Virus record (IMG/VR): IMGVR_UViG_3300032307_000516
Location: 8,050 to 72,049 of that record
Reading direction: 5' to 3' (one strand)
DNA length: 64,000 bases
From: a virus
The translations under genes were made by a program, and so were the position numbers. The stretch's first letter is position 1, and each line of letters begins with the position of its first letter. The notes below the pieces were generated by a model. The model saw only the letters and a program-made list of their open reading frames with translations. It did no database searches and was not told where the DNA came from. Below, piece by piece: positions 1 through 53,358 of this stretch.

Positions 1-1
1 T

Positions 2-211
2 TTTCAAAATGCAGAAGGTGAAGATACAACAATAGAAATTGCTGGCGCTTCTGAGCCAGAATATGTTGGAAGTTCAATGGTAAGCAATATCGAGATGATC
101 GAAGATTCAAGCTCTGACGGAAAAAAATATTCAATCGTTGGATATTACGATGAAGTGCCTGGTCAAGACGGTGAATATGAGCTTAAAAAAGTACTAGTAG
201 AAGAAATATAA
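2..211 (+). CDS. 3' end of hypothetical protein (truncated by window)
   Basis: Open frame from base 2 to TAA at 209-211 (FQNAEGED...VLVEEI). Confidence 0.7.
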   Translation, partial: FQNAEGEDTTIEIAGASEPEYVGSSMVSNIEMIEDSSSDGKKYSIVGYYDEVPGQDGEYELKKVLVEEI

Positions 212-213
212 TC

Positions 214-495
214 ATGTCAATCAGAGTCTATTCAGGATACGATGAATTTAAGTTCGAGGAAGAAGAAATCTGCGAATATTTAGAATCCGATTTCTCAGAT
301 TCAAACGATGATGATGAATCAGATGATGTATTTTTTTATACTGAATCTAAAATAGATTTTAGAGACGATGCTGATTTTTATATAATCTGTGATACAGAGG
401 ACGAGGAGACAGCAGAGGATATAGCTTCTTATTTAGGTAAGGCTAAAAAAATAAATTTAGAAGATTTTAGGAAATCATTTTTTTATATAAGATAA
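214..495 (+). CDS. acidic hypothetical protein
   Basis: 93-aa ORF, D/E-rich, follows previous ORF by 2 nt. Confidence 0.7.
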   Translation: MSIRVYSGYDEFKFEEEEICEYLESDFSDSNDDDESDDVFFYTESKIDFRDDADFYIICDTEDEETAEDIASYLGKAKKINLEDFRKSFFYIR

Positions 496-501
496 AATAT
501 C

Positions 502-539
502 TATATTTGTGAAACAAAACAACAAATAAGATATATAAA
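502..539 (+). promoter_or_regulatory. promoter region of tRNA operon 1 (TATATTTG; GAAAC-N17-ATATA; GATATATA)
   Basis: Bacteroidota -7 box TAnnTTTG at 502-509 plus two motifs that recur upstream of many genes in the window. Confidence 0.55.
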
Positions 540-545
540 GTTTAA

Positions 546-605
546 ATGAAAACAATACTTAACATATTACCTTCAATATTAAGACCGTCGATAAGACGAT
601 CCTAA
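546..605 (+). CDS. leader peptide 1 (MKTILNILPSILRPSIRRS)
   Basis: 19-codon uORF rich in ATA/TTA/CCN/TCN/AGA, matching downstream tRNAs; stop overlaps antiterminator. Confidence 0.85.
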   Translation: MKTILNILPSILRPSIRRS

Positions 606-670
606 AGGTCCTGTGTTAATAAAAAATAATCATTAACTAAACCGGGACCTTTAAAAGTCTCGGTTTTTTT
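603..670 (+). terminator. attenuator 1: antiterminator 603-613 / terminator 639-670
   Basis: AAACCGGGAC/GTCTCGGTTT hairpin plus U-tract; TAAAGGTCCTG can alternatively pair with CGGGACCTTTA (643-653). Confidence 0.85.
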
Positions 671-671
671 A

Positions 672-684
672 TGTTCTTTGACAT
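672..684 (+). promoter_or_regulatory. boxA-like antitermination element
   Basis: TGTTCTTTGACAT resembles rrn boxA (TGCTCTTTAACA); recurs before each tRNA block. Confidence 0.7.
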
Positions 685-700
685 GTTGGATTATCAAATT

Positions 701-787
701 GGAGAGGTGGCAGAGCCTGGTTTATTGCACCGGTCTTGAAAACCGACGTAGTGAAAGCTACCGGGGGTTCGAATCCCTCCCTCTCCG
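701..787 (+). tRNA. tRNA-Ser(TGA)
   Basis: Cloverleaf with long variable arm, anticodon loop CTTGAAA. Confidence 0.95.
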
Positions 788-792
788 CATTT

Positions 793-866
793 GGTCCGCT
801 AGCTCAGCTGGATAGAGCAACTGCCTTCTAAGCAGTAGGTCTCAGGTTCGAATCCTGAGCGGATCA
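793..866 (+). tRNA. tRNA-Arg(TCT)
   Basis: Cloverleaf, loop CTTCTAA. Confidence 0.95.
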
Positions 867-1033
867 CACAAATCCCTCTGCCTAGCGCTGGGTATGGATC
901 GAAGATAGAATATGCCTCTACACCGTAGACAGGTAGGATACCTCGGTATTCTTTAATGATATGCACACTTATTCTCCAAATCGTTGGTTGGCACAGTTTG
1001 TATGTTCTGGTGATACTTAAAGACATACAATTT

Positions 1034-1106
1034 CGGGATGTAGATCAGTTGGTAGATCGCCTGGTTTGGGACCAGGAGGCCCCAGGTTCGAGTCCTGGTA
1101 TCCCGA
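1034..1106 (+). tRNA. tRNA-Pro(TGG)
   Basis: Cloverleaf, loop TTTGGGA. Confidence 0.95.
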
Positions 1107-1109
1107 CTA

Positions 1110-1172
1110 CGGAGGCTGTAAAGTCAAACAGTGAAGAATTTAAAGGATGACATCTTTAAATCCCTCCGACCA
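1110..1172 (+). ncRNA. small three-way-junction RNA ending in ACCA
   Basis: CGGAGG/CCTCCG closing stem followed by ACCA; two internal hairpins. Confidence 0.5.
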
Positions 1173-1173
1173 T

Positions 1174-1247
1174 AGAGGCGTAGCTCAATTGGTTAGAGCA
1201 CATGCCTTATACGCATGCGGTCACGAGTTCGACTCTCGTCGTCTCTA
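1174..1247 (+). tRNA. tRNA-Ile(TAT)
   Basis: Cloverleaf, stem CATGC/GCATG, loop CTTATAC. Confidence 0.9.
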
Positions 1248-1251
1248 CTTA

Positions 1252-1325
1252 GGTCCCTTAGCTCAGTAGGTTAGAGCAACTGACTCATAATCAGTAGGTC
1301 CACGGTTCGAGCCCGTGAGGGACCA
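1252..1325 (+). tRNA. tRNA-Ile2(CAT), lysidine type
   Basis: Loop CTCATAA; body (GGTCCCTTAGCTCAG...) resembles bacterial Ile2; separate fMet and Met genes exist. Confidence 0.85.
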
Positions 1326-1416
1326 CAAAGATACGGATGAGATTTCTAAATCTCCTACTTACTTATGAAAAGAAGGATTCCGTAACTAATACCATATAGT
1401 AGTGATGGTATTGTCT

Positions 1417-1499
1417 GCCCGGATGTTGAAATAGGTAGACAAGACGGACTTAAAATCCGTTGGCCATTGGTCGTGAGGGTTCAAGTCCCTCTCCGGGTA
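1417..1499 (+). tRNA. tRNA-Leu(TAA)
   Basis: Cloverleaf with variable arm, loop CTTAAAA. Confidence 0.95.
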
Positions 1500-1504
1500 C
1501 AAAT

Positions 1505-1611
1505 ATAATAGTGGCAGAGAGGCTTAATGCTGAGCATACATAGAGTCTGGGAATGTGGTATGTATGATACCTATACACGGGGACTCGCAGGTTCGAATCC
1601 TGTCTATTATA
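1505..1611 (+). ncRNA. tRNA-like RNA with replaced anticodon arm
   Basis: Acceptor ATAATAG/CTATTAT, D arm, T arm GCAGG-TTCGAAT-CCTGT, 56-nt non-canonical centre. Confidence 0.6.
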
Positions 1612-1614
1612 TAT

Positions 1615-1719
1615 ATAGGAGTGGCGGAAGCGTGATCTTTGCAAAGGTCCGATAGATAGACGACAGGGTGTCATACCCGAGAATGAAAGTTCATATTGGT
1701 GCAAGTCCAATCTCCTGTA
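1615..1719 (+). ncRNA. tRNA-like RNA with D-loop insertion and aberrant anticodon arm
   Basis: Acceptor ATAGGAG/CTCCTGT, Leu-like TGGCGGAA...TAGACG, T arm ATTGG-TGCAAGT-CCAAT. Confidence 0.55.
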
Positions 1720-1743
1720 CTTTTTTGATATATATAAAGAATC

Positions 1744-2115
1744 ATGAGTGAACATATTAAGATATCAGGAATGGGTATAGAAATATACAAAAATGATATA
1801 CCAGGTGTAAGATGGAATAAAGCTCAGTCTTTTGCTCAGATTCTTGGAGATGGATGGAGATTACCAACTTTAGAAGAACTTGCTTTAATAAGATCAATAA
1901 GAAATATAGGTGATATAGGAAGATTTCCTGTAGAATATTCGGATTTTTCCGATTCATATTACTGGAGTAACGAAGAACGCGAATTTACTACTAAAAAAAT
2001 GATGGGAAGTAGTCTTAAAAGTACCTATGCTTACTTTTTTGATATGGCTGAAGGAACTTCTTCACACAATAAAAAGTCATACGAGCTTAGGGCTAGATTT
2101 GTTAGAGATATATAA
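1744..2115 (+). CDS. DUF1566/Lcl-like domain protein
   Basis: GWRLPTLEEL, YYWS and C-terminal RARFVR motifs. Confidence 0.7.
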   Translation: MSEHIKISGMGIEIYKNDIPGVRWNKAQSFAQILGDGWRLPTLEELALIRSIRNIGDIGRFPVEYSDFSDSYYWSNEEREFTTKKMMGSSLKSTYAYFFDMAEGTSSHNKKSYELRARFVRDI

Positions 2116-2118
2116 ATC

Positions 2119-2895
2119 ATGCCAACAACAAGAGCATTTGCATATAATCCAGCACAAGCAACAATTTCTGGAACTACAAATATAGGTACATTATGTGTAG
2201 GTGTATCTGCTTTAAATTACGGAGGAAATCCTGGTGGATTAACTTGGTGGATGGGTCCGGACGAGGATAATTCTTATGTTATAGCTAAGGATGTGCCAAC
2301 AGCAGACTTCCCTACTCCAGTAGGTAATGTTGGTAATGTACAATTTTGGAGATGTTCTAACAACAGCTCAGAATTCACTAATCTTGTTACATTAATAAGT
2401 GGTACTACACAAGCATCTGCTTCTGCTGCTCAATCGTGGCTATCAACAAATAATTATTGGACTAATTACACTAGCGGAGTAACTTTCTCACAACCTTTTG
2501 TAAATGGTACTGCACCAACAAATGCAGTAGAAACTGCTTGGAATACATTTAGAGCATCTTTAACAGGTTCTTATACACAATTTGTTGTATCTAATTCATT
2601 AGGGTTTAGTTTAACAGTAAGTCATGCTACTTCAGTACAGACTTTGGCAAATGCACTAAGAAATGCAACAAATAATACCTCGGTAACTATAAACAGCGTA
2701 GTTTGGAGAGTAGGAACAGGATGTGGAACTCCTAAAATAGGTGGGGTTGCTGTTGAATTTTCCAACGTAGCAAGCTGTAGTTCATCAAGTACTATAGCAT
2801 TTAGACCTATGATTAATAACTTAAACTGGGGAGGTATGGGTACAGGATCTACTGTAGGACAGGCTTCACAAACAATGACACTAACATTTAGCTAA
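2119..2895 (+). CDS. hypothetical protein, probably virion-associated (T/S/G/N-rich)
   Basis: 258-aa ORF preceded by GATATATA motif. Confidence 0.7.
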   Translation: MPTTRAFAYNPAQATISGTTNIGTLCVGVSALNYGGNPGGLTWWMGPDEDNSYVIAKDVPTADFPTPVGNVGNVQFWRCSNNSSEFTNLVTLISGTTQASASAAQSWLSTNNYWTNYTSGVTFSQPFVNGTAPTNAVETAWNTFRASLTGSYTQFVVSNSLGFSLTVSHATSVQTLANALRNATNNTSVTINSVVWRVGTGCGTPKIGGVAVEFSNVASCSSSSTIAFRPMINNLNWGGMGTGSTVGQASQTMTLTFS

Positions 2896-3047
2896 TGGAA
2901 ACTTATAGAATAATAGACTTAAGAGTAACCCCAAATGAAATAGTACCAGGTAAGGAATCTGTTACTTTAGAAGAGGGACAATTATGGATAGACGAGAACG
3001 GAGGAGATTGTCCATTGTGCGACTATACGCTATTAATCAATGAATAA
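2895..3047 (+). CDS. small hypothetical protein (50 aa, CxxC)
   Basis: TAATG overlap with upstream gene; METYRIIDL...DCPLCDYTLLINE. Confidence 0.55.
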   Translation: METYRIIDLRVTPNEIVPGKESVTLEEGQLWIDENGGDCPLCDYTLLINE

Positions 3048-3153
3048 ATGTAGATTTTTTAAAATAATTTGAAAAAAATACAAAAAACATTTTTTTAAAC
3101 GGGAACTTTTCCGTACTTTTGGAGTATATAATAAAAAAGGAACAAAACTTTCA

Positions 3154-3243
3154 ATGAAACACTTTTTAAATATCGAAATGGATCTTCAGCTTCTAAAAGG
3201 AGACGAACGTCTTGAGGATACAAATAAGTGTCAGAGGAAATAA
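3154..3243 (+). CDS. leader peptide 2 (MKHFLNIEMDLQLLKGDERLEDTNKCQRK)
   Basis: 29-codon uORF rich in GAR, GAY and CTN codons, matching downstream Glu/Asp/Leu(TAG) tRNAs. Confidence 0.8.
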   Translation: MKHFLNIEMDLQLLKGDERLEDTNKCQRK

Positions 3244-3293
3244 ATTTATATAAAGATATAATTTAAACCTCTGATAACCTCAGAGGTTTTTTT
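3229..3293 (+). terminator. attenuator 2: antiterminator 3229-3237 / terminator 3265-3293
   Basis: AAACCTCTGA/TCAGAGGTTT hairpin plus U-tract; TGTCAGAGG pairs alternatively with CCTCTGATA. Confidence 0.85.
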
Positions 3294-3301
3294 GTTTTAT
3301 A

Positions 3302-3314
3302 CGCTCTTTGAAAT
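3302..3314 (+). promoter_or_regulatory. boxA-like element
   Basis: CGCTCTTTGAAAT. Confidence 0.65.
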
Positions 3315-3317
3315 TAT

Positions 3318-3392
3318 GGTCCCTTCGTCTATCGGTTAGGACGTTAGGTTTTCATCCTAGAAAGAGGGGTTCGATTCCCCTAGGGACTACCA
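3318..3392 (+). tRNA. tRNA-Glu(TTC)
   Basis: Cloverleaf, loop TTTTCAT, encoded CCA. Confidence 0.95.
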
Positions 3393-3397
3393 GAAAA

Positions 3398-3471
3398 GGT
3401 CCTACAGTCCAGTTGGAGTGGACGCCGCCCTGTCACGGCGGAGATCGCGGGTTCGAGTCCCGCTAGGACCG
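3398..3471 (+). tRNA. tRNA-Asp(GTC)
   Basis: Cloverleaf, loop CTGTCAC. Confidence 0.95.
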
Positions 3472-3569
3472 CTAAAACTTATGCTACATAGAGCAAAGCA
3501 GAAAGGTACGATCTGGTACACTATGAAGTACAAATAGAAAGTCAGATCATAAGTTTTAAAAAATTATAT

Positions 3570-3642
<73 letters not shown>

Positions 3643-3856
3643 CTAATAAGTTATTTGAAATATTTGCGAAAAGTTCGATGGAATCAATTATAGGTCCAGG
3701 GCACAAATCCGTGTGAGGAATCCAATTGATAGAAGAACCTTCTACTGAGTAATGCACGTACACGTGATATCCATAGAAAAGTCCTAATAAGTTAAAGGCA
3801 AAGGAGTTGATAATACCGGTTAAAAACAACTTTATCTCTTTAGATAGCAAATAAAT

Positions 3857-3936
3857 GCCCTCGTGGTGGAATTGGTAGACACGCTAGACTTAGGATCTAG
3901 TGCGAAAGCGTGAGAGTTCGAGTCTCTCCGAGGGTA
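3857..3936 (+). tRNA. tRNA-Leu(TAG)
   Basis: Cloverleaf with variable arm, loop CTTAGGA. Confidence 0.95.
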
Positions 3937-3938
3937 CT

Positions 3939-4436
3939 ATGAAAGTTATATTTTTAGATTTTGATGGTGTTCTTAATCTTATACCTCAAGGACATGACTA
4001 TTACGGAGGGATTTTTCACCCTGAATTTGTCGGCAACCTAGGTAGGATTATAGAGGAAACTGGAGCAAAACTTGTGATAAGCTCTTCGTGGAGAACTATG
4101 GGATTGGAAAGACTTAGAATGATGTGGGAACATCGTTTATATCCAGGAGACATCATAGGAGTTACCCCAGATCTTAGATGGAGGACAAAAAAAGATGCTA
4201 TGGAATTAAACGAAGTCGAGTACGTTAGAGGAGATGAAATAGAGTCATGGCTAAATCTACATCCGGAGGTAACTAATTATGTTATACTTGACGATGATGA
4301 TGATATGTTACAATCACAAAGAATAAACTTTGTAAGAACATCTGATAATATTAATCATCCTGATTGCATTGATATAGGATACGGATTAACTAATATTTGT
4401 TCTAACGATGCAATTAGAATTTTAAACAGAAAATAA
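3939..4436 (+). CDS. HAD-superfamily phosphatase (HAD_SAK_2-like)
   Basis: MKVIFLDFDGVL, SSSWR, RGDEI, YVILDD motifs; start corrected to the ATG after tRNA-Leu. Confidence 0.85.
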   Translation: MKVIFLDFDGVLNLIPQGHDYYGGIFHPEFVGNLGRIIEETGAKLVISSSWRTMGLERLRMMWEHRLYPGDIIGVTPDLRWRTKKDAMELNEVEYVRGDEIESWLNLHPEVTNYVILDDDDDMLQSQRINFVRTSDNINHPDCIDIGYGLTNICSNDAIRILNRK

Positions 4437-5005
4437 TGAAAGTTATATTTTTAGATCATGATGGAGTAATTTGTCTTTCCCAGCAATTTGGTGGGCGTTA
4501 CAAAAAGCAGACTAAAGCTAGAACTAAGCTTTCTCAAAACGTGATGGATTTTCCAGTCGATGCTAGATTTGATAACTTCGATAAGAAAGCTATTAAAGTT
4601 CTAAACCTAATCTTAGAAGATACTGGAGCTGAAATAGTTGTTTCTTCTGATTGGAAGAACTGGGCAAATGTTGAAGAAATGGGCGAATATTACGAACAAC
4701 AAGGTATAATTAAAAAGCCTATTGATTTTACACCTAGAGAATACACAATGCCAGAGAAACAAGAATGGCATCCAGACTGGGATTTAGAAGCATCAAGAAC
4801 TTTAGAAATCCAAGAATGGCTAAAAGATCATCCAGAGGTTACTCATTGGGTAGCAATAGATGATTTAGATATGAGCTTTAAAGAGGTATCAAATAATAGA
4901 AGCGGTACTGGCTGGGGCTTAAAAAACTTTGTACACACCCCAAGTATCACTGAAGGGATTAAAAAAATGGGTATAAAAGAAAAAGTTTTAAAATTTTTAA
5001 AATAA
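4436..5005 (+). CDS. HAD-superfamily phosphatase (HAD_SAK_2-like), paralog
   Basis: FLDHDGV, SSDWK, WVAIDD motifs. Confidence 0.85.
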   Translation: MKVIFLDHDGVICLSQQFGGRYKKQTKARTKLSQNVMDFPVDARFDNFDKKAIKVLNLILEDTGAEIVVSSDWKNWANVEEMGEYYEQQGIIKKPIDFTPREYTMPEKQEWHPDWDLEASRTLEIQEWLKDHPEVTHWVAIDDLDMSFKEVSNNRSGTGWGLKNFVHTPSITEGIKKMGIKEKVLKFLK

Positions 5006-5088
5006 TTTCAAAAAACATTTTTTTATTTAAAAAATATATTGTACTTTTACGAAACTATTCTGGAAACAGGATATATAATTAAGAAAAA

Positions 5089-5196
5089 ATGAAAAACTGT
5101 AGTAAACATAACATCAATCGCATGAACAGTCAAATTAATGGCTGCTATCAAACGGTGGCGTTTTGGGCTAAGGGGAAAGAACCCGATCGAAGCTAA
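5089..5196 (+). CDS. leader peptide 3 (MKNCSKHNINRMNSQINGCYQTVAFWAKGKEPDRS)
   Basis: 35-codon uORF; first 30 codons use exactly the 16 amino acids whose tRNAs lie downstream. Confidence 0.88.
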   Translation: MKNCSKHNINRMNSQINGCYQTVAFWAKGKEPDRS

Positions 5197-5255
5197 TACA
5201 GAAAATCATAATTAGATATTTTGGAAAAGGCTTCGATTTAATCGAAGCCTTTTTT
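5185..5255 (+). terminator. attenuator 3: antiterminator 5185-5194 / terminator 5225-5255
   Basis: AAAAGGCTTCGAT/ATCGAAGCCTTTT hairpin plus U-tract; GATCGAAGCT pairs alternatively with GGCTTCGATT. Confidence 0.85.
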
Positions 5256-5258
5256 ATT

Positions 5259-5271
5259 TGTTCTTTGACAT
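5259..5271 (+). promoter_or_regulatory. boxA-like element
   Basis: TGTTCTTTGACAT, identical to 672-684. Confidence 0.7.
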
Positions 5272-5283
5272 ACTGGAAAAAAT

Positions 5284-5356
5284 GGTACCGTAGCTCAGTT
5301 GGTAGAGCACTAGACTGAAAATCTAGGTGTCGCCGGTTCGATTCCGGCCGGTACCA
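5284..5356 (+). tRNA. tRNA-Phe(GAA)
   Basis: Cloverleaf, loop CTGAAAA. Confidence 0.95.
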
Positions 5357-5427
5357 CAATACTAAACAAGAAATTGTCTCACTAAACTAATCATGTTTAG
5401 TATTACAAAAACAAGTTTAGTAACAAT

Positions 5428-5501
5428 GATCTCGTAGCTCAGTTGGCTAGAGCACCTCACTTTTAATGAGGGAGTCGAGGGTTCGAGCCCCTCCGGGATC
5501 A
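5428..5501 (+). tRNA. tRNA-Lys(TTT)
   Basis: Cloverleaf, loop CTTTTAA. Confidence 0.95.
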
Positions 5502-5507
5502 CTACAC

Positions 5508-5580
5508 ACGTCAGTAGCTCAATTGGTAGAGCGTTGGTCTCCAAAACCAAAGGTCGTAGGTTCGATTCCTACCTGGCGTG
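5508..5580 (+). tRNA. tRNA-Trp(CCA)
   Basis: Cloverleaf, loop CTCCAAA. Confidence 0.95.
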
Positions 5581-5586
5581 CTAAAA

Positions 5587-5659
5587 GGCTCTGTAGTTCA
5601 AGGGATTAGAATGGATCACTACGGATGATCTGATCCTGGTTCGAATCCAGGTGGAGTCT
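5587..5659 (+). tRNA. tRNA-Arg(ACG)
   Basis: Cloverleaf, loop CTACGGA. Confidence 0.9.
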
Positions 5660-5670
5660 CAAACAAATAA

Positions 5671-5742
5671 GGTCGTGTGGTCGAGTGGTTTAGGCACTAG
5701 TCTGCAAAACTAGTTATACTGGTTCAATTCCAGTCACGGCCT
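5671..5742 (+). tRNA. tRNA-Cys(GCA)
   Basis: Cloverleaf, loop CTGCAAA, U73. Confidence 0.92.
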
Positions 5743-5759
5743 CAAAAAATGTAAGAAGT

Positions 5760-5885
5760 ATGAAAATAGTTATTGAAGGAAAAATGAAATCGTCGAATCA
5801 CAGATTAAATGCGATTCCAGTTAAAATTGAAAGAAAAAATTCTCTAATCAAAAGAATCAAAAGATTGATTAATAAAGGAAAGTAA
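5760..5885 (+). CDS. small basic hypothetical protein (41 aa)
   Basis: MKIVIEGKMKSS...RLINKGK fills the spacer; stop lies inside tRNA-Ser(GCT). Confidence 0.4.
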   Translation: MKIVIEGKMKSSNHRLNAIPVKIERKNSLIKRIKRLINKGK

Positions 5886-5962
5886 TCTCAGATGGTGACG
5901 GGGCTCGCCTGCTAAGCGAAGCGTACCTTAATTGGTATTTGGTTCGATTCCAATTCTTTCCG
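5877..5962 (+). tRNA. tRNA-Ser(GCT)
   Basis: Loop CTGCTAA, long variable arm; slightly imperfect stems. Confidence 0.85.
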
Positions 5963-5968
5963 CAACAT

Positions 5969-6042
5969 TGACATATAGCTCAGTTGGTTAGAGCGTTGAT
6001 CTGATACGTCAAAGGTCGAAGGTTCGAATCCTTCTATGTCAA
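5969..6042 (+). tRNA. tRNA-Ile(GAT)
   Basis: Cloverleaf, loop CTGATAC. Confidence 0.93.
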
Positions 6043-6058
6043 CTTAAAAATTATAAAA

Positions 6059-6085
6059 ATGAAAAAAGAATTTGACAACTTGTAG
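6059..6085 (+). CDS. 8-aa uORF MKKEFDNL whose TAG lies in a hairpin
   Basis: A-rich leader, ATG...TTG TAG; CTTGTAGG/CCTACAAG hairpin abuts the ATG at 6106. Confidence 0.45.
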   Translation: MKKEFDNL

Positions 6086-6105
6086 GTTTAATTAAACCCT
6101 ACAAG

Positions 6106-6297
6106 ATGAGTAAAAACACAAACAGAGCAAAACTGAACAAAGCAATGAATGGTAGAGAACACAGAAACATTTTAAATAATGCTCTTTATCCTCCATACAG
6201 TGAATATGATCACACATGGTGGCATGGAAATTTATCCAATCACAAATGGAGATCATACAAAACCTGGAAACACAACAGAAAAACAAAATGGAAGTAA
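6106..6297 (+). CDS. small basic Trp/Lys-rich hypothetical protein
   Basis: 63-aa ORF ending WRSYKTWKHNRKTKWK. Confidence 0.65.
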   Translation: MSKNTNRAKLNKAMNGREHRNILNNALYPPYSEYDHTWWHGNLSNHKWRSYKTWKHNRKTKWK

Positions 6298-6308
6298 TTC
6301 CATTTTAC

Positions 6309-6381
6309 AGTCTCTTAGCTCAGTTGGTAGAGCGCTTGGTTTACATCCAAGATGTCGGGGGTTCGAGCCCCTCAGGGACTA
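6309..6381 (+). tRNA. tRNA-Val(TAC)
   Basis: Cloverleaf, loop TTTACAT. Confidence 0.95.
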
Positions 6382-6384
6382 CAA

Positions 6385-6537
6385 GATTAGAAGCGGTAGA
6401 TTTGGTTACTTCGCACTTTTAATGCCCGTGTCGGGGGTTCGAATCCCTCATCTAGCTCCATAGCAGATCCTAGGATTTGTGCTAGATTAGCTCAGCGGTA
6501 GAGCAGGTTCCAAACCAAATCTAAATATTCTCTAATC
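6385..6537 (+). ncRNA. scaffold RNA copy 1 enclosing a circularly permuted tRNA-Lys(TTT)
   Basis: 3' tRNA half 6413-6460 precedes 5' half 6481-6507; flanks GATTAGA/TCTAATC and AGATTTGGTT/AACCAAATCT pair. Confidence 0.85.
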
Positions 6538-6545
6538 CTAATATT

Positions 6546-6629
6546 GATTAGAAGCGGTGAAAGGGGTTACTTCTCAAAACCTTGTAAATTTTTGACCAAA
6601 AAACCACCCCGATTAAATATTCTCTAATC
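6546..6629 (+). ncRNA. scaffold RNA copy 2 without tRNA cargo
   Basis: GATTAGAAGCGGT...GGTTACTTC...TAAATATTCTCTAATC repeated, with a different inner stem GGGGT/ACCCC. Confidence 0.75.
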
Positions 6630-6635
6630 AAAACT

Positions 6636-6707
6636 GGGGATGTAGCTCAGCGGTAGAGCTCCCGACTGTTAATCGGTAGGTCGCTGGTTCGAATCCAGCC
6701 TTCCCCG
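6636..6707 (+). tRNA. tRNA-Asn(GTT)
   Basis: Cloverleaf, loop CTGTTAA. Confidence 0.93.
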
Positions 6708-6743
6708 CAATTCAGAGTGTTGAGCAATTGGTTGCTCAGCTGA
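6687..6743 (+). repeat. direct repeat copy 1 (tRNA-Asn 3' end plus truncated tRNA-Tyr 5' part)
   Basis: Near-identical to 7870-7927. Confidence 0.85.
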
Positions 6744-6780
6744 TAAAAGAATATATTATATTTAGATTCAATTTTAAGTT

Positions 6781-7716
6781 ATGACAGGATACCATATATA
6801 CTACCAAACATCAGAAGATGGAGAATATGAGCAAATAAATTATTTAGTTCAATTAGCTTCAATTTTAAATTGGAAAAAGAATTATGGCCCCATCAAATTG
6901 TATTGTAACCAAAGATTTCTAGAGTCTATATCCAAATATGGAATTGATAAAGAATATGATTTTATTGATACTGAGTATTTAGAATCAGTTCCATATAAAG
7001 ATAGTATGTCGACATTTTGGAGCTTTTGCAAAATTTATGTCGCTAAAAAGATTGTCGAAACTGAATCGGAATTTTGTATTTTAGATACTGATTTATGGAT
7101 TCAAGCGCCTGACTTATTAAGTCAAGAACATGATTTAGTTTTACATCACGCTGAAGCTTATGATCTAAATTATGATCGCAACCCATATCCAGATCCTAGA
7201 AATTGGTTAATTGAGTCAGAGATAGAAGAATATGATTGGAATACCTCTCCCGCAAATTGCGCGATATTGTATTTTAAAAATAAAAGTAAAGAGTTAATAG
7301 ATGCTTGGTATGAATTTGCAATTAAAATAGTAGAGCGTCATAAAGATAATAATACAGAACCGAATTTGCGTTGCGGTACTATTTTTATCGAGCAACGTCT
7401 ATTACCTACAATAGCAAAGAAAATGGGTATATCAATGACGGTCGTGTCTCCTTGTACTTATTTAACTTGGATACCAGCTTCATTGGCTGATGGGCGGGAA
7501 TGGAGGCCTTCATTAGATTATTCAGAACGATCTTTATATATTGGTTCTAATATTAAACATGTATGGGGAGCAAAAAAGTTTTATTCTGAAAATTGGATTC
7601 GGGAGTTAATAATTGACAATGCTATGATAGGAATTAATTTAGTTCAGAATCAAGAAAGAAAGTATTTTAAGTTATACAGTGATGTGCATGAAGTGCATCC
7701 AAAAAAATATATTTAA
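6781..7716 (+). CDS. DUF6734-like / GT-A glycosyltransferase-like protein
   Basis: GPIKLY, FWSFCKIY, hydrophobic strand plus DTD (DxD), EQ motif. Confidence 0.6.
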   Translation: MTGYHIYYQTSEDGEYEQINYLVQLASILNWKKNYGPIKLYCNQRFLESISKYGIDKEYDFIDTEYLESVPYKDSMSTFWSFCKIYVAKKIVETESEFCILDTDLWIQAPDLLSQEHDLVLHHAEAYDLNYDRNPYPDPRNWLIESEIEEYDWNTSPANCAILYFKNKSKELIDAWYEFAIKIVERHKDNNTEPNLRCGTIFIEQRLLPTIAKKMGISMTVVSPCTYLTWIPASLADGREWRPSLDYSERSLYIGSNIKHVWGAKKFYSENWIRELIIDNAMIGINLVQNQERKYFKLYSDVHEVHPKKYI

Positions 7717-7785
7717 AATAAATTAAAAAATATTTGGTACTTACAAATGGTAACACCTTATATTTATATATAGTTAAAAAGAAAT

Positions 7786-7799
7786 AGTTCTTTAAAAAT
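7786..7799 (+). promoter_or_regulatory. boxA-like element
   Basis: AGTTCTTTAAAAAT directly upstream of tRNA block. Confidence 0.5.
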
Positions 7800-7802
7800 A
7801 TT

Positions 7803-7891
7803 GGAAGGGTGACAGAGTTGGTCTATCGCGCCGGTCTTGAAAACCGGTGAACTCGAAAGGGTTCAGTGAGTTCGAATCCAACCTTCCCTCG
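7803..7891 (+). pseudogene. chimeric pseudo-tRNA-Ser(TGA) with Asn-derived 3' end
   Basis: Ser-type 5' part and variable arm intact; T stem and acceptor mispair because sequence after GTTCGAATC matches tRNA-Asn. Confidence 0.75.
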
Positions 7892-7927
7892 CACTTCGGA
7901 GTGTTGAGCAATTGGCTGCTCAGCTGA
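7870..7927 (+). repeat. direct repeat copy 2
   Basis: Near-identical to 6687-6743. Confidence 0.85.
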
Positions 7928-7981
7928 CTGTAAATCAGCCGCCTTACGGCATTGGGGGTTCGAATCCCTCCGCTCCGACCA
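7897..7981 (+). tRNA. tRNA-Tyr(GTA), C1:G72
   Basis: Loop CTGTAAA, variable arm, encoded CCA. Confidence 0.93.
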
Positions 7982-7984
7982 AAT

Positions 7985-8059
7985 GCAGGTATCGTATAAC
8001 GGTCATTACTTCTGACTTCCAATCAGAAGATCTCGGTTCGATTCCGGGTACCTGCTCCA
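7985..8059 (+). tRNA. tRNA-Gly(TCC)
   Basis: Loop CTTCCAA, U73, CCA. Confidence 0.95.
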
Positions 8060-8062
8060 AAT

Positions 8063-8102
8063 GCCGGGTGATCCTCTCGTTGAATCACGAGAGCCGGCTC
8101 CA
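8063..8102 (+). ncRNA. 40-nt minihelix-like RNA ending TCCA
   Basis: GCCGG/CCGGC-T-CCA stacked on CTCTCGT/ACGAGAG hairpin. Confidence 0.5.
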
Positions 8103-8103
8103 C

Positions 8104-8177
8104 GGGGGATTAGCTCAGTTGGCTAGAGTACTTGCCTTGCACGCAAGGGGTCATCGGTTCGAATCCGATATCCTCCA
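8104..8177 (+). tRNA. tRNA-Ala(TGC)
   Basis: Loop CTTGCAC, G3:U70. Confidence 0.95.
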
Positions 8178-8186
8178 CTTTTATAT

Positions 8187-8259
8187 GGCGAGTTAGCTCA
8201 GTTGGTAGAGCGTCGGAATCATACCCCGAAGGTCGGCAGTTCGAACCTGCCACTCGCTA
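8187..8259 (+). tRNA. tRNA-Met(CAT), elongator
   Basis: Loop ATCATAC, paired 1:72. Confidence 0.9.
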
Positions 8260-8261
8260 CT

Positions 8262-8338
8262 GTGACGGTAGCTCAGTTGGTTAGAGCGTCTGATTGTGGT
8301 TCAGAAGGTCGGGGGTTCGATTCCCCTCTGTCACCCCA
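8262..8338 (+). tRNA. tRNA-His(GTG)
   Basis: Loop TTGTGGT, C73, CCA. Confidence 0.93.
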
Positions 8339-8339
8339 T

Positions 8340-8412
8340 GCCTTTGTAGCTCAGCTGGTAGAGCGCTTCACTTGTAATGAAGATGTCGCAGGTTCGATCC
8401 CTGTCAAAGGCT
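8340..8412 (+). tRNA. tRNA-Thr(TGT)
   Basis: Loop CTTGTAA. Confidence 0.95.
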
Positions 8413-8418
8413 CTATAA

Positions 8419-8491
8419 TGTCCTGTGGTGTAATTGGCAACACGTCTGATTTTGGTTCAGAAGAGTCCAGGTTCGAGCCCTGGCGGGACAT
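8419..8491 (+). tRNA. tRNA-Gln(TTG)
   Basis: Loop TTTTGGT, U1:A72. Confidence 0.95.
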
Positions 8492-8537
8492 CTAAAAAAT
8501 AAGATAAATACAATAACCAGTATGTAAAAATAGAGCT

Positions 8538-9026
8538 ATGAAAGTGCTAGTATTAAATAATGACTTTACGCCTATAAGCGTTACCGATTTTGCCCGGGGA
8601 TTTAAGCTTGTATATAAAGGTAAAGCAGAAATTTTAGAGCACGATGAACAAAACCCAATTGTTACTGATCAAAGCACCTACAAAAGACCATCAGTAATTC
8701 GACTTCTAAAGTATGTTGTTTTGCCTTTCAAAAAGCTAAAACCTACAAGGGAAAATATCTTTAAAAGAGATGAGATGAAATGTATCTATTGTGATACATC
8801 AAAAAATCTCACAATAGATCACGTTTTTCCCAGATCTAGAGGTGGTGGTAACACATGGGAAAATTTAGCTACATGCTGTTCAAAATGTAACGGTAGAAAA
8901 GGAGATAGAACCCCGGAAGAAGCCGGAATGAAAATGAGACAAAAGCCATTTAAACCCGGATATGGCTATTTCATAAGGAATTTTTCCAAAGGAATAGATG
9001 TGTGGACAGCATATCTTCCAGATTAA
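8538..9026 (+). CDS. HNH endonuclease (McrA-like)
   Basis: CxYC, TIDHVFPRSRGG, WENL, CxxCN motifs. Confidence 0.9.
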   Translation: MKVLVLNNDFTPISVTDFARGFKLVYKGKAEILEHDEQNPIVTDQSTYKRPSVIRLLKYVVLPFKKLKPTRENIFKRDEMKCIYCDTSKNLTIDHVFPRSRGGGNTWENLATCCSKCNGRKGDRTPEEAGMKMRQKPFKPGYGYFIRNFSKGIDVWTAYLPD

Positions 9027-9097
9027 TAATTTATAGGAATCGTTTTTTTTATTCTAGAAGTTTCTATATTTTTATCATAACCAAAAATGTAAAATAT

Positions 9098-9649
9098 ATG
9101 AAATACTATTTAATCATCCTATTATCAGCATTTATAGGTTTTAATTCTTTCTCACAAAGTGCTATAGAAAAAGAGTTATTAAATCAGCTTAATGTTTATC
9201 GTAAAAGCAAAGGTTTAGGACCTATGTCTATCGATGCAAAATTATACGATGTAGCATTATATCATTCTAGATACTTAGAACAATGCGCAATAGTAGGACA
9301 TAATACACATTATGATAAATTGCCTCACGATGAGCAGTTCGATATCAAAAACCACAAAGAAATGAATACAGATCTTCGTGCTGCGATGTATCCAGATGGA
9401 AATATGTACGGGGAAATATCAATGCAATCTTTTTTAATCGATTCGACTGCTAATGTTACTAAAATATGTAAATCAATAATCGATCAATTCGCAGGGTCTC
9501 CAAATCACAAAGAAATCATGGTTACAGATTTTGGTACGGATAAAAGATTAAAACCAATTGTGGGTATTTCAGTAATACAGGTAAAATGCGATATTCCAGG
9601 AAACTATAAGTATGTCGTAAATATAGATTTCGGGGTTATTACTTTTTAA
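9098..9649 (+). CDS. secreted CAP/SCP-domain protein
   Basis: Signal peptide MKYYLIILL..., LNVYRKSKGL, A..HS, SPNH motifs. Confidence 0.7.
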   Translation: MKYYLIILLSAFIGFNSFSQSAIEKELLNQLNVYRKSKGLGPMSIDAKLYDVALYHSRYLEQCAIVGHNTHYDKLPHDEQFDIKNHKEMNTDLRAAMYPDGNMYGEISMQSFLIDSTANVTKICKSIIDQFAGSPNHKEIMVTDFGTDKRLKPIVGISVIQVKCDIPGNYKYVVNIDFGVITF

Positions 9650-10934
9650 CATCTCCTCCACAGGTTGCAGCTAAACTAAAAGCTGTACCTGCACAAGGTG
9701 AAAATACCACCATATCTAATGAGTCTTTTACAAATGTTTTATTTACTTTTATAGTTATATCATCAATATCGACAACATTAGGCATTGGTAATTTTTTGGA
9801 CTTTATTAAACTTGATGTGGTCATACCCGCTTTATTATCCGAATATGTAGTATATTTGCTTATATCGTAAGTTGAGTATACCTCTATTTTTCCTTGAGCA
9901 TCAAAGAAATTAGGATTTAATGATTTAATATCGCCTTTAAGTCCTAATTTTTTAATTCTTGCATTAATTCCATTAACTAGAGCGTTTCCTTTGTTGTATA
10001 CTTCATTTAATGCTTTTTTGTAATCCTTGACCATATATGTTTTATTGTCTATGATTCTTTTTTCTGGCATTAATCCGTTTCCTTTTTCTGCTTCTGCTTT
10101 TGCTTTAGTGAAAACCGCCTCATCATAAGGCTCTACTACCACTCCTCCTAAAGATCCGCAGAAAGGAGAAAGCCTATGTTCGTCGTTATATTTATAGAGG
10201 AATGAATCTGGTACAGTTTGTGGGTTGAAATTAATATTCATTACGTCTCCTGCTTTTGCTATGATATAAACATTCTTATCGTATCCAGCAAAGAAGTTCT
10301 CTGACGTACCTTTACCACCTCTTCCTGTAGTTGTTTTGTTACAAGAGACCTTTCTATCCTCTTCTATTTTTTCTCCCTCTGCATCGATACCTGATGATAT
10401 CTTTTGATATTTTTTAAATTCCTCAGAATCCTTATCTGAGCCAGATTTATACTCTGGACCTTGATTAGGTTTTGGTGTTTTTGTTATCTTAACCTTATTT
10501 TTAACATTAGCAAGGAAAGTCTCCTTCTCTTCTGTTTTAAGAGCTAGATATTTAAAAAGTAAATCATTTATTATTCCCTCTAATGTTTCCAATCTTGCTT
10601 TAGCAAGTCCGGTATTTGATAGATCTGTATATCCGGATTCTTTTAAAGCAGCTTTCGCATTAGGTCCTAAAGGTACTTTACTTGTGGATGCTATTAGGTT
10701 AATATTAAGTCTTTGTCCTATATAGTCTTGTGATTTCATAATGGGCAATATACCTTTTCTGAAATCATTTTCTATTTTTTTTAAAGATTCCTCGCTAATA
10801 TCTTTTTTTAAGAATTTACCGGAATCGAAATTAAAATCCCAGTCAACTTCTTGATTTCCTGGTTTTTCTTCCTCATATACTTTATTGTATGATTCGTTAA
10901 TAAATTCTGTAAATGATAATACTGATCTTTTCAT
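9639..10934 (-). CDS. hypothetical protein, candidate internal head protein
   Basis: 431-aa ORF; N-terminal FTEFINES motif; GATATATA upstream. Confidence 0.7.
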   Translation of the reverse strand: MKRSVLSFTEFINESYNKVYEEEKPGNQEVDWDFNFDSGKFLKKDISEESLKKIENDFRKGILPIMKSQDYIGQRLNINLIASTSKVPLGPNAKAALKESGYTDLSNTGLAKARLETLEGIINDLLFKYLALKTEEKETFLANVKNKVKITKTPKPNQGPEYKSGSDKDSEEFKKYQKISSGIDAEGEKIEEDRKVSCNKTTTGRGGKGTSENFFAGYDKNVYIIAKAGDVMNINFNPQTVPDSFLYKYNDEHRLSPFCGSLGGVVVEPYDEAVFTKAKAEAEKGNGLMPEKRIIDNKTYMVKDYKKALNEVYNKGNALVNGINARIKKLGLKGDIKSLNPNFFDAQGKIEVYSTYDISKYTTYSDNKAGMTTSSLIKSKKLPMPNVVDIDDITIKVNKTFVKDSLDMVVFSPCAGTAFSLAATCGGDVKK

Positions 10935-51143: not shown

Positions 51144-51733
51144 AACCTTTTAAAGATCAATTTGAAGATTATCAATTAAGCATTTCTGGATTATCCTCGT
51201 TAGCAGAGGAATCTTTTATGTTTTGGTTTAAAAATTTTGTAAACCAGAAGAGCCAATTTAATCCCCTTGACTTTTTACCTGGTAAATTTTATTCTTTTGA
51301 ATACAACGATGTATTGGAAAAGAATAAAAAATTCATAAATAAAAGACCAGTTATATTCTTTACTGGATTTATGAACTACGAGAATAAGCAAGCTTTTAGT
51401 GGTATAGATATAATATTGATGCCACCTATTTTTAGGTTAGCATTTTTTTCAAGAATACAATCTGTTTACCAGGATATAATAGAATCTAACATAAGAAAGG
51501 TAGAGAATGGAGAGAATCTCGGGCAAATGCCTCTTAAGACTGATTACGAAACTCTAGATATCATTATGAAAGGCATACCATATAAAAATACATATAGGGC
51601 ATGGGATTTAAAAAAAGTTCGTGATGTAATGGAAATTCCCTACGAAGATTGGACTAGAATAGTATATCTACATACTAGGTCAATTCAAGGGACCCCGATA
51701 GAAGAGATATATACTAAAAACTCAAAGATCTAA
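51140..51733 (+). CDS. DNA end protector (gp2-like)
   Basis: PGKFYSFEY, context next to gp4. Confidence 0.55.
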   Translation: MKPFKDQFEDYQLSISGLSSLAEESFMFWFKNFVNQKSQFNPLDFLPGKFYSFEYNDVLEKNKKFINKRPVIFFTGFMNYENKQAFSGIDIILMPPIFRLAFFSRIQSVYQDIIESNIRKVENGENLGQMPLKTDYETLDIIMKGIPYKNTYRAWDLKKVRDVMEIPYEDWTRIVYLHTRSIQGTPIEEIYTKNSKI

Positions 51734-53355: not shown

Positions 53356-53358
53356 GAG

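Follow-up and report, generated by a model that had tools for sequence, protein, structure and literature searches.

The leader-peptide attenuators of amino acid operons are represented by trpL, hisL, pheL and leuL, and by the multivalent leaders thrL and ilvL. In a 64,000-nucleotide stretch of viral DNA (positions 8,050 to 72,049 of the IMG/VR record IMGVR_UViG_3300032307_000516; hereafter, the window), the segment 5042-5271 on the plus strand is probably a ribosome-mediated attenuator of this trp/his style that controls a phage tRNA operon located at 5284-8492. As in the trpL/hisL class, a short leader open reading frame (ORF) is followed by an intrinsic terminator, the 5' strand of the antiterminator lies at the end of the leader, an upstream 1:2 hairpin is predicted, and the regulatory codons are cognate to the end product of the operon; the multivalent thrL and ilvL leaders also answer several amino acids. 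Unlike members of the trpL/hisL class, the phage units would regulate tRNA genes, the product being a decoding tRNA rather than an amino acid. Where the known leaders carry runs of one to three kinds of codons, the phage leaders name up to 16 codon families, most of them once or twice; the units also belong to phages and have a boxA-like site behind the terminator. The pheST (pheM) attenuator of phenylalanyl-tRNA synthetase is similar in that a leader peptide controls a component of the translation apparatus, but it involves a single amino acid, and the gene that it controls is cellular and encodes a protein. The window comes from a viral contig of 72 kb (CheckV completeness 25%), has a G+C content of 35%, and encodes a terminase, a tail sheath, a portal and a helicase; thus, it derives from a large tailed phage. 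ARAGORN identifies 26 tRNA genes in the window, in three clusters (701-1500, 3318-3937 and 5284-8492).

A scan of the whole window against Rfam at the gathering thresholds detects tRNAs only and no leader family, and a scan of 400-8600 with E-values up to 5 yields no credible leader or riboswitch match and no T-box; the best leader match, to Thr_leader, falls on the unit preceding the first cluster and scores 22.9 bits against a cut-off of 55. Given that the downstream genes encode tRNAs and that no Rfam leader family matches at gathering, the element appears to work like the trp/his class but to belong to no described leader family. In searches of the literature, no publication describing tRNA genes under the control of a leader peptide was found: PMC3082878 mentions a tRNA operon once, in a connection unrelated to such control, and the main text of the huge-phage paper PMC7162821 contains no occurrence of "attenuat-", "leader" or "terminator", although supplementary files might annotate such ORFs. 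The nearest published biology found is the trn operon of Anabaena sp. PCC 7120. According to two reports (PMC8421152, PMC10272220), this is an extra, normally silent tRNA array that is switched on when translation is impaired, with the TrcR repressor controlling the promoter via direct repeats. RNA repair genes are located near both arrays (rtcB in Anabaena, HAD_SAK_2 phosphatases in the phage), but the Anabaena array is cellular and plasmid-borne whereas that of the window is phage-borne, and the main text of PMC8421152 has no occurrence of "attenuat-", "leader peptide" or "terminator".

The leader ORF of the third unit (leader 3; 5089-5196, plus strand; 35 codons and a TAA stop, starting with ATGAAA) reads MKNCSKHNINRMNSQINGCYQTVAFWAKGKEPDRS. 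The original prediction, made from the letters of the sequence alone, held that the first 30 codons of this ORF specify exactly the amino acid set of the 16 downstream tRNAs. ARAGORN calls bear this out: codons 1-30 encode 16 amino acids (M, K, N, C, S, H, I, R, Q, G, Y, T, V, A, F and W), precisely those of the 16 tRNAs that it identifies at 5284-8492, and the match extends to the isoacceptor families. All 16 families have been listed by codon 26 (TGG), 30 of the 33 non-Met codons belong to tRNA families of the third cluster, and Glu, Pro and Asp appear in codons 31-33 only. With the 16,714 codons of the long ORFs of the window as the background, the chance of encountering every one of the 15 non-Met amino acids in a 34-codon ORF ahead of any out-of-set codon, a calculation proposed together with the original prediction, is 2.5e-6; when codon families are required (AGY for Ser, CGN for Arg, ATY for Ile), it drops to 6e-9.

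The match also holds at the codon level because tRNA-Ser(GCU) reads AGT and AGC. Here the original prediction stood in part: the Ser codons of the leader do have a cognate, but it is a previously unlisted class II tRNA-Ser(GCU) at approximately 5877-5963 (plus strand), not the tRNA-Ser(UGA) at 7802-7890. This gene falls below the ARAGORN default threshold; with the threshold relaxed (-ps80), the program calls Ser(gct) at 5877-5963, and the Rfam tRNA-Sec model matches 5876-5962 with 38.3 bits (E 6e-5; anticodon loop CTGCTAA). The more distant relatives L010 and L011 possess a Ser(gct) gene, called by ARAGORN, in the equivalent position, and 58 of 95 and 59 of 97 alignment columns, respectively, are identical with these.

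Intrinsic terminator 3 (5224-5259, plus strand) consists of a 5' arm at 5224-5237, a loop at 5238-5240 and a 3' arm at 5241-5254, followed by a T-run. Its hairpin (5222-5256, 16 pairs) is the strongest of the 8 terminator-like sites in 1-10000; the three strongest of these sites (639-666, 3265-3289 and 5222-5256) each lie about 30 nucleotides 5' of the first tRNA of a cluster. The candidate antiterminator strand, region 2 (GATCGAAGCT, 5185-5194, plus strand), comprises the last codons of leader 3 and the first base of the stop codon. As anticipated from the sequence, Glu, Pro and Asp are confined to the end of the leader, where a stalled ribosome would mask the antiterminator. When the 3' arm of the terminator is omitted from the fold, 5185-5194 pairs with 5229-5238 over 10 base pairs; this truncated 73-nucleotide fold has an energy of -22 kcal/mol (z -5.6), and none of 200 shuffles is as good. 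In the full-length fold of 5120-5262, the terminator (5224-5237/5241-5254) coexists with a hairpin in which region 1 (5160-5166, plus strand; codons GCG TTT TGG) is predicted to pair with 5187-5193; this 1:2 hairpin is a prediction seen in one minimum free energy fold. The predicted folds show the four-region layout of classical attenuators, with the stop codon within region 2. A promoter-like box TACTTTTA (5042-5049, plus strand) precedes the leader, and a boxA-like box GTTCTTTGACAT (5260-5271, plus strand), an exact TCTTTGAMAT site, follows the terminator. Taken together, the leader list, the antiterminator strand, the terminator and the late non-matching codons, on which the attenuator reading was originally built, are all present in the sequence.

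In the proposed mechanism, transcription would start at a host-type promoter about 35 nucleotides before the leader ATG, and a ribosome would translate the 35-codon leader, in which every one of the 16 downstream tRNA families is represented within the first 26 codons. With prompt decoding, the ribosome would reach the last codons or the stop and cover 5185-5194, the terminator at 5224-5254 would form, and the tRNAs would remain untranscribed. A stall at any listed codon would instead leave the ribosome upstream, covering region 1, so that 5185-5194 could pair with 5229-5238, blocking the terminator and letting the polymerase continue into the tRNA genes. The boxA-like site would be transcribed next and would probably recruit the Nus factors of the host, so that antitermination could carry the polymerase through a tRNA array that is long and structured. 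The products being tRNAs that speed the translation of the leader itself, the circuit would amount to negative feedback, with the operon on when the pool for any listed codon is short and off once it is refilled.

The two other clusters are preceded by comparable units on the plus strand. Unit 1 (502-684), ahead of the tRNAs at 701-1500, includes a promoter-like box TATATTTG (502-509), a leader ORF (546-605; MKTILNILPSILRPSIRRS), a predicted antiterminator strand (604-617), a terminator (639-666) and a boxA-like box (673-684). Unit 2 (3114-3314), ahead of the tRNAs at 3318-3937, includes a box TACTTTTG (3114-3121), a leader ORF (3154-3243), a predicted antiterminator strand (3232-3237), a terminator (3265-3289) and a boxA-like box (3303-3314). 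All three leader ORFs (546-605, 3154-3243 and 5089-5196) open with ATGAAA, the boxes that follow the three terminators read GTTCTTTGACAT or GCTCTTTGAAAT, and the predicted alternative folds of units 1 and 2 (604-617 with 640-652, and 3232-3237 with 3268-3273) resemble that of unit 3. In leader 1, 13 of the 18 codons belong to its own tRNA families (ATA four times, TTA, AGA and CCN twice each, TCN three times; background 0.209, P 4e-6), and in leader 2 this is the case for 10 of the 27 non-Met codons (background 0.168, P 0.0095). Counted against clusters 1, 2 and 3 (backgrounds 0.209, 0.168 and 0.623), the codons are distributed 13/1/4 for leader 1, 2/10/15 for leader 2 and 1/2/30 for leader 3.

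The generality of the design was assessed in at least 196 phage loci, collected as relatives of the HAD_SAK_2 protein and by a scan of IMG/VR for the box, plus the window. Units were called by a fixed rule. Within the 260 nucleotides upstream of a tRNA, a T-run with a hairpin had to be present; the leader was the longest ATG-initiated ORF of at least 12 codons that ends 15-40 nucleotides before the hairpin, and the tRNA set was counted until another unit began or a 2.5-kb gap intervened. This rule yields at least 93 units, which form at least 40 families at 50% peptide identity; none was dropped, and 35 of the 40 family representatives were found through the box alone. Across the 40 families, 793 of 1261 leader codons belong to the leader's own tRNA set, compared with 622 expected from the codon usage of ORFs in the same locus, and the leaders cover 380 of 410 tRNA families, compared with 288.5 expected. 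Individually, 25 of the 40 units have p_match < 0.05 and 21 have p_cov < 0.05; the Fisher combined P is 2e-23 for the match and 7e-21 for coverage. When leaders and clusters are re-paired, the observed values are reached in none of 20,000 trials, also with blocking by set size. Both measures drop to the background in the other frames of the same DNA (535/1193 and 536/1141 matches and coverage of 270 and 273 for frames +1 and +2) and in the reverse complement (609/1207 matches, coverage 293). In loci with two or three units, the leaders contain 290 codons of families exclusive to their own cluster versus 108 of families exclusive to the other, and 50 of the 67 codons that vary within families remain in the set (40.4 expected). 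Chance as the source of the match is rejected on the basis of the window probabilities, the 40-family statistics and the re-pairing, and codon usage as its cause on the basis of the same-locus backgrounds, the shifted frames and the swaps within loci.

The position of the non-matching codons agrees with the masking argument of the original prediction, namely, that these codons lie where a stall would hide the antiterminator. Own-set codons are found in 17-19 of the 40 families at each of the last six positions, as opposed to a peak of 28-33 of 40 at codons 9-17 from the stop. Such depletion of the last codons is what attenuation predicts because a ribosome stalled there would cover the antiterminator. 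The leader ends are also complementary to their own terminators: in 22 of the 40 families, the best 12-mer against the 5' arm of the own terminator is superior to 95 or more of 100 shuffles, with a trough of the mean antiterminator energy at -30 to -9 nucleotides from the stop; the own terminator arm is the best of 40 in 16 of the 40 families, and the observed mean is reached by none of 20,000 permutations.

Individual cases illustrate the correspondence. The leader MKKMLDILVIALANVLLWAVVEDALYTVG precedes Asp Asp Glu Val Leu Leu Ala, and MRTTGTTYQPKQYTQGGKPSVTGVSYQVGSEEII precedes Pro Pro Gln Tyr Thr Gly Gly Lys Lys Lys. In the 735-kb genome of an uncultured huge phage (GenBank LR756501.1), a unit at approximately 184.2-184.5 kb (L336) comprises the 22-codon leader MKNMVRKYNDYCINDKLKMLIG, a terminator and a GTTCTTTGAAAT box before Ile Cys Ile Asp Asn Asn Asn Ile Tyr Asp Asp; the leader is rich in Tyr, Asn, Asp, Cys and Ile, exactly the five amino acids of its tRNAs. 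No unit was found in the 12 kb of LR745206.1 examined. Searches of GenBank phage DNA and proteins for cultured relatives gave only tRNA-level matches or distant relatives; the Tenacibaculum phages PTm1 and pT24 and the Flavobacterium phage MaF61 contain 12 box-like sites, the control frequency, with no tRNAs in the 12 loci. Given the 40 families (at least 196 loci) and LR756501.1, the putative attenuator design represents a class rather than a curiosity of one contig.

The same attenuator might respond to amino acid supply (that is, to uncharged tRNA) or to general translation stress rather than to tRNA abundance. Slow decoding from any cause would stall the ribosome, the sequence is blind to the difference between a charged and an absent tRNA, and the match claimed in the original prediction was at the amino acid level. 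The Anabaena array, too, is induced by general translational stress (PMC8421152). An extra tRNA, however, gives no relief from amino acid starvation, and the leaders follow the isoacceptor that is actually encoded: for Leu, Ser, Arg and Ile, 126 of 180 codons belong to the sub-family read by the isoacceptor present, compared with 96 expected (z 4.9). The same pairing is seen in the window, with ATA for Ile(UAU), ATY for Ile(GAU), TTA for Leu(UAA), CTN for Leu(UAG), AGA for Arg(UCU) and CGC for Arg(ACG). This isoacceptor-level match favors tRNA supply over amino acid supply as the signal, and makes the alternative signal unlikely.

The elements flanking the leader and the terminator bear on a different explanation. 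The promoter-like box matches 7 of the 8 positions of TAnnTTTG, which we take to be the -7 promoter element of Bacteroidota; the same position is occupied by TACTTTTG in the relatives L006 and L007 and by TACATTTG in L004. An exact TAnnTTTG ends 20-60 nucleotides 5' of the leader ATG in 17 of 39 families compared with 85 of 2000 random windows, which is compatible with the box at 5042-5049 being a promoter. Exact TCTTTGAMAT occurs at only three sites in the 64 kb of the window, all at the heads of the three tRNA clusters, and sites with one mismatch number 32 compared with 25.5 expected; a role of the box as a general phage promoter was accordingly rejected. The 17-mer GTTCTTTGACATRYTGG, letter-identical to the phage box, is present in many Bacteroidota genomes among the matches listed. 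In 63 of the 122 bacterial occurrences among these matches, it lies no more than 500 nucleotides after tRNA-Ala(UGC), and in all four rRNA operon contigs checked with Rfam it is located between tRNA-Ala(UGC) and the 23S rRNA. Part of a report on E. coli (PMC4807359) places the spacer boxA of rRNA operons at the corresponding position. Given that the 17-mer sits in the 16S-23S spacers of Bacteroidota ahead of the 23S rRNA, the phage box is best read as a host-type boxA and the host as a member of Bacteroidota. In contrast to the rrn boxA (PMC4807359, in the same part), the phage box heads tRNA arrays, downstream of a putatively regulated terminator, and an action of NusB/S10 is suggested by its position. 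The 122 bacterial occurrences listed gave no indication of host tRNA operons with the layout of the phage units, and a tRNA starts within 60 nucleotides 3' of the box in only two of these, both in small contigs of metagenome-assembled genomes.

Alternatively, the short ORF and the terminator could form an independent unit or an insulator after the HAD genes, with the box serving as the promoter of the tRNA genes and the codon likeness carrying no regulatory meaning. The box does include TTTG, the presumed core of the Bacteroidota -7 motif, and lies 12-25 nucleotides ahead of the first tRNA; furthermore, in some phages it is found inside tRNA arrays and after the terminators of protein-coding genes. 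This explanation nevertheless appears quite improbable: the bacterial 17-mer occupies a boxA position, not a promoter position, inside rRNA operons, and neither the leader-tRNA match nor the family-specific complementarity between leader ends and terminators would be explained.

Comparison of the locus with its relatives shows how the leader changes. The HAD_SAK_2 gene located directly upstream has 356 confirmed relatives in IMG/VR, 80 of which were examined. Leader 3 is kept in 8 close loci, where amino acid exchanges such as N>F, K>T, M>T, I>N and N>K remain within the 16-residue set and synonymous changes are seen as well. In the terminator stem, C>T on the 5' side goes with a compensating G>A on the 3' side, and the changed 5' arm can still form G-U pairs with the unchanged antiterminator. 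A more distant group has the leader MKQNSTHNVSNLPTNVGQSWFTIKGQDCRKFRVLNKM before Asn Lys Trp Thr Ile Pro Phe Gly Asp Gln (with Ser Leu His Cys further on); this leader uses the Leu, Pro and Asp codons that leader 3 of the window avoids. The terminator of this group is a different one, and the end of the leader repeats the sequence of the 3' arm of that terminator. The original prediction named, as a finding that would speak against it, homologous operons with the same tRNA set and an unrelated leader; instead, where relatives share the tRNA set, the set of codons in the leader is preserved too, and where the tRNA set differs, in relatives as well as in unrelated phages, the leader carries that other set.

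That the ORF encodes a functional micro-protein, the composition of which reflects the codon and tRNA preferences of the phage, could be suggested by its retention in the 8 close loci and by the MK...H start common to many leaders. This possibility seems very unlikely given that codon usage of the same locus already serves as the baseline, that the signal is lost in shifted frames, that leaders fit their own cluster and not the other one, and that the peptide sequence evolves freely; neighboring small ORFs have no Pfam match, the leaders themselves lying outside that search. A direct RNA-tRNA sensor of the T-box kind, with codon-like triplets pairing with anticodons without a ribosome, would likewise take tRNA as its signal and employ a terminator/antiterminator pair, but is hardly credible considering the lack of a T-box or riboswitch match in the Rfam scans described above, the frame-specificity of the signal, and the fact that 16 specifiers in 78 nucleotides leave no space for specifier loops.

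Several observations weigh against the attenuator. Translation of the leader, termination at 5250-5259, regulated readthrough and the nature of the signal are all inferred from sequence, as are the OR-gate behavior and the starvation response put forward in the original prediction. The codons listed in leader 3 occur mostly once or twice, without the runs typical of hisL or pheL, and because they are single, the sensitivity of the leader to shortage of one tRNA is uncertain. Decoding of GGC by Gly(UCC) requires more than standard wobble. Leader 3 contains no TCN codons despite the Ser(UGA) gene in the operon; this absence is explained by the insertion that brought in Ser(UGA) (see below). The match of leader 2 is much weaker than those of the others, with 10 of 27 codons from its own families versus 15 from the cluster 3 families. 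In the survey, 15 of the 40 families are not individually significant for the match and 19 for coverage, some of the ORFs picked by the rule (for example, L151, L098, L152 and L179) are probably not leaders, and the permutation P values are overstated because the families are not phylogenetically independent, several sharing an MK-x-x-x-K/R-H start. A leader family of 9 sequences has 10, 12 and 15 variable sites in the three codon positions, and most of the variable codon columns change the residue; the leader alignments show no third-position excess, the coding-type substitution pattern, so that conservation provides no independent proof of translation. The promoter box of the window carries one mismatch, and the box after the terminator could, in principle, be a promoter element instead of boxA.

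RNA-Seq contigs of a relative hint weakly at readthrough. A 401-nucleotide contig (record 3) from the RNA-Seq run X18, about 94% alike, covers 5182-5502 and therefore bridges terminator 3 into tRNA-Phe and tRNA-Lys, and a 151-nucleotide contig from run X19 lies on 3196-3314. The four RNA runs are available as assembled contigs, which give no ends, strand or levels, and coverage gaps (of the protein-coding parts that separate the clusters, in X18/X19) are unusable as evidence. Because these contigs come from a relative, give no ends or strand, and RNA libraries may hold DNA, X18 and X19 offer a weak hint only, and the bridging contig gives no sign of regulation.

The putative target operon (5284-8492, plus strand) has the gene order Phe Lys Trp Arg(ACG) Cys Ser(GCU) Ile(GAU) Val Asn, followed by an insertion with Ser(UGA) and then by Tyr Gly Ala Met His Thr Gln. 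The original prediction placed an insertion at 6744-7869. An insertion is indeed present, being absent in relatives, but is better delimited as approximately 6709-7896 (plus strand), the whole stretch between Asn and Tyr, including the ORF 6781-7716 (311 amino acids; a weak DUF6734 match of 20.9 bits, under the cut-off) and tRNA-Ser(UGA) at 7802-7890. The Asn-Tyr spacing is 1188 nucleotides in the window and 4 nucleotides in all five relatives examined; hence tRNA-Ser(UGA) appears to have come with the insertion. For a single operon at 5284-8492, present or past, the support is indirect only and is provided by the relatives that lack the insertion and by the absence of terminator-like sites on the plus strand in 5300-8500.

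Other features of the tRNA region were observed as well. A 41-amino-acid Lys/Arg-rich ORF (5760-5885) ends within the 5' part of the tRNA-Ser(GCU) gene, and the two are jointly kept in the relatives L004-L012. A 63-amino-acid Trp/Lys/Asn-rich ORF without a Pfam match is located at 6106-6297, in the gap between tRNA-Ile and tRNA-Val, which are adjacent in L004-L012. Between tRNA-Val and tRNA-Asn, an element that is headed by GATTAGAAGCGGT and includes tRNA-like pieces occurs twice in the segment 6383-6630, with weak Rfam matches to YrlA (Y RNA-like; 28.3 bits at 6425-6509) and to tRNA (22 bits at 6395-6457); this spacer is short in L004-L012 (about 90 nucleotides in L008, L004 and L012). Directly 3' of the last tRNA of the operon is an HNH endonuclease gene (8538-9026; HNH_5, E 1.4e-17), and in many relatives the tRNA arrays are also interrupted by homing endonuclease-like ORFs. 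In relatives and in further phages that carry the box, ARAGORN calls tRNAs with stop codon anticodons, tta in L010 (at about 4767), cta in L089 and L166, and tca in L113 and L122, which are possible suppressor tRNAs. Clusters 2 and 3 are separated by two tandem paralogous HAD_SAK_2 genes (3939-5005; E 6.5e-27 and 9.3e-23), encoding phosphatases of the RNA repair type, the first of which overlaps the end of tRNA-Leu(UAG). Elsewhere in the window, 51733-55008 encodes two adjacent portal-like paralogs of 540 and 549 amino acids (both phrog_213; E 7e-55 and 4e-58).

Current ideas on the role of phage tRNA genes center on matching of codon usage and on escape from tRNA-cleaving host defenses. A further, tentative step, to which we give slightly less than even credence, is to consider the leaders multi-input sensors of the host tRNA pool, in which a stall at any of up to 16 codons would open the operon, with three sets monitored independently in the window, and which would be common in phages of Bacteroidota, including the 735-kb genome in GenBank. 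The ribosome would then stall when an anticodon nuclease has removed a host tRNA or when host tRNAs decay during infection, and the phage would resupply exactly the tRNAs that it monitors and subsequently shut the operon off. If so, no earlier example would be known in which translation of the codons that tRNAs read controls the genes of these same tRNAs. A leader of own codons coupled to a switchable terminator would make the expression of phage tRNAs conditional on a measured shortage, a circuit open to experimental test. It would extend leader-peptide attenuation, a textbook mechanism of amino acid operons, to the genes of decoding tRNAs, and would represent a compact natural sensor of decoding speed that reads many codons simultaneously.

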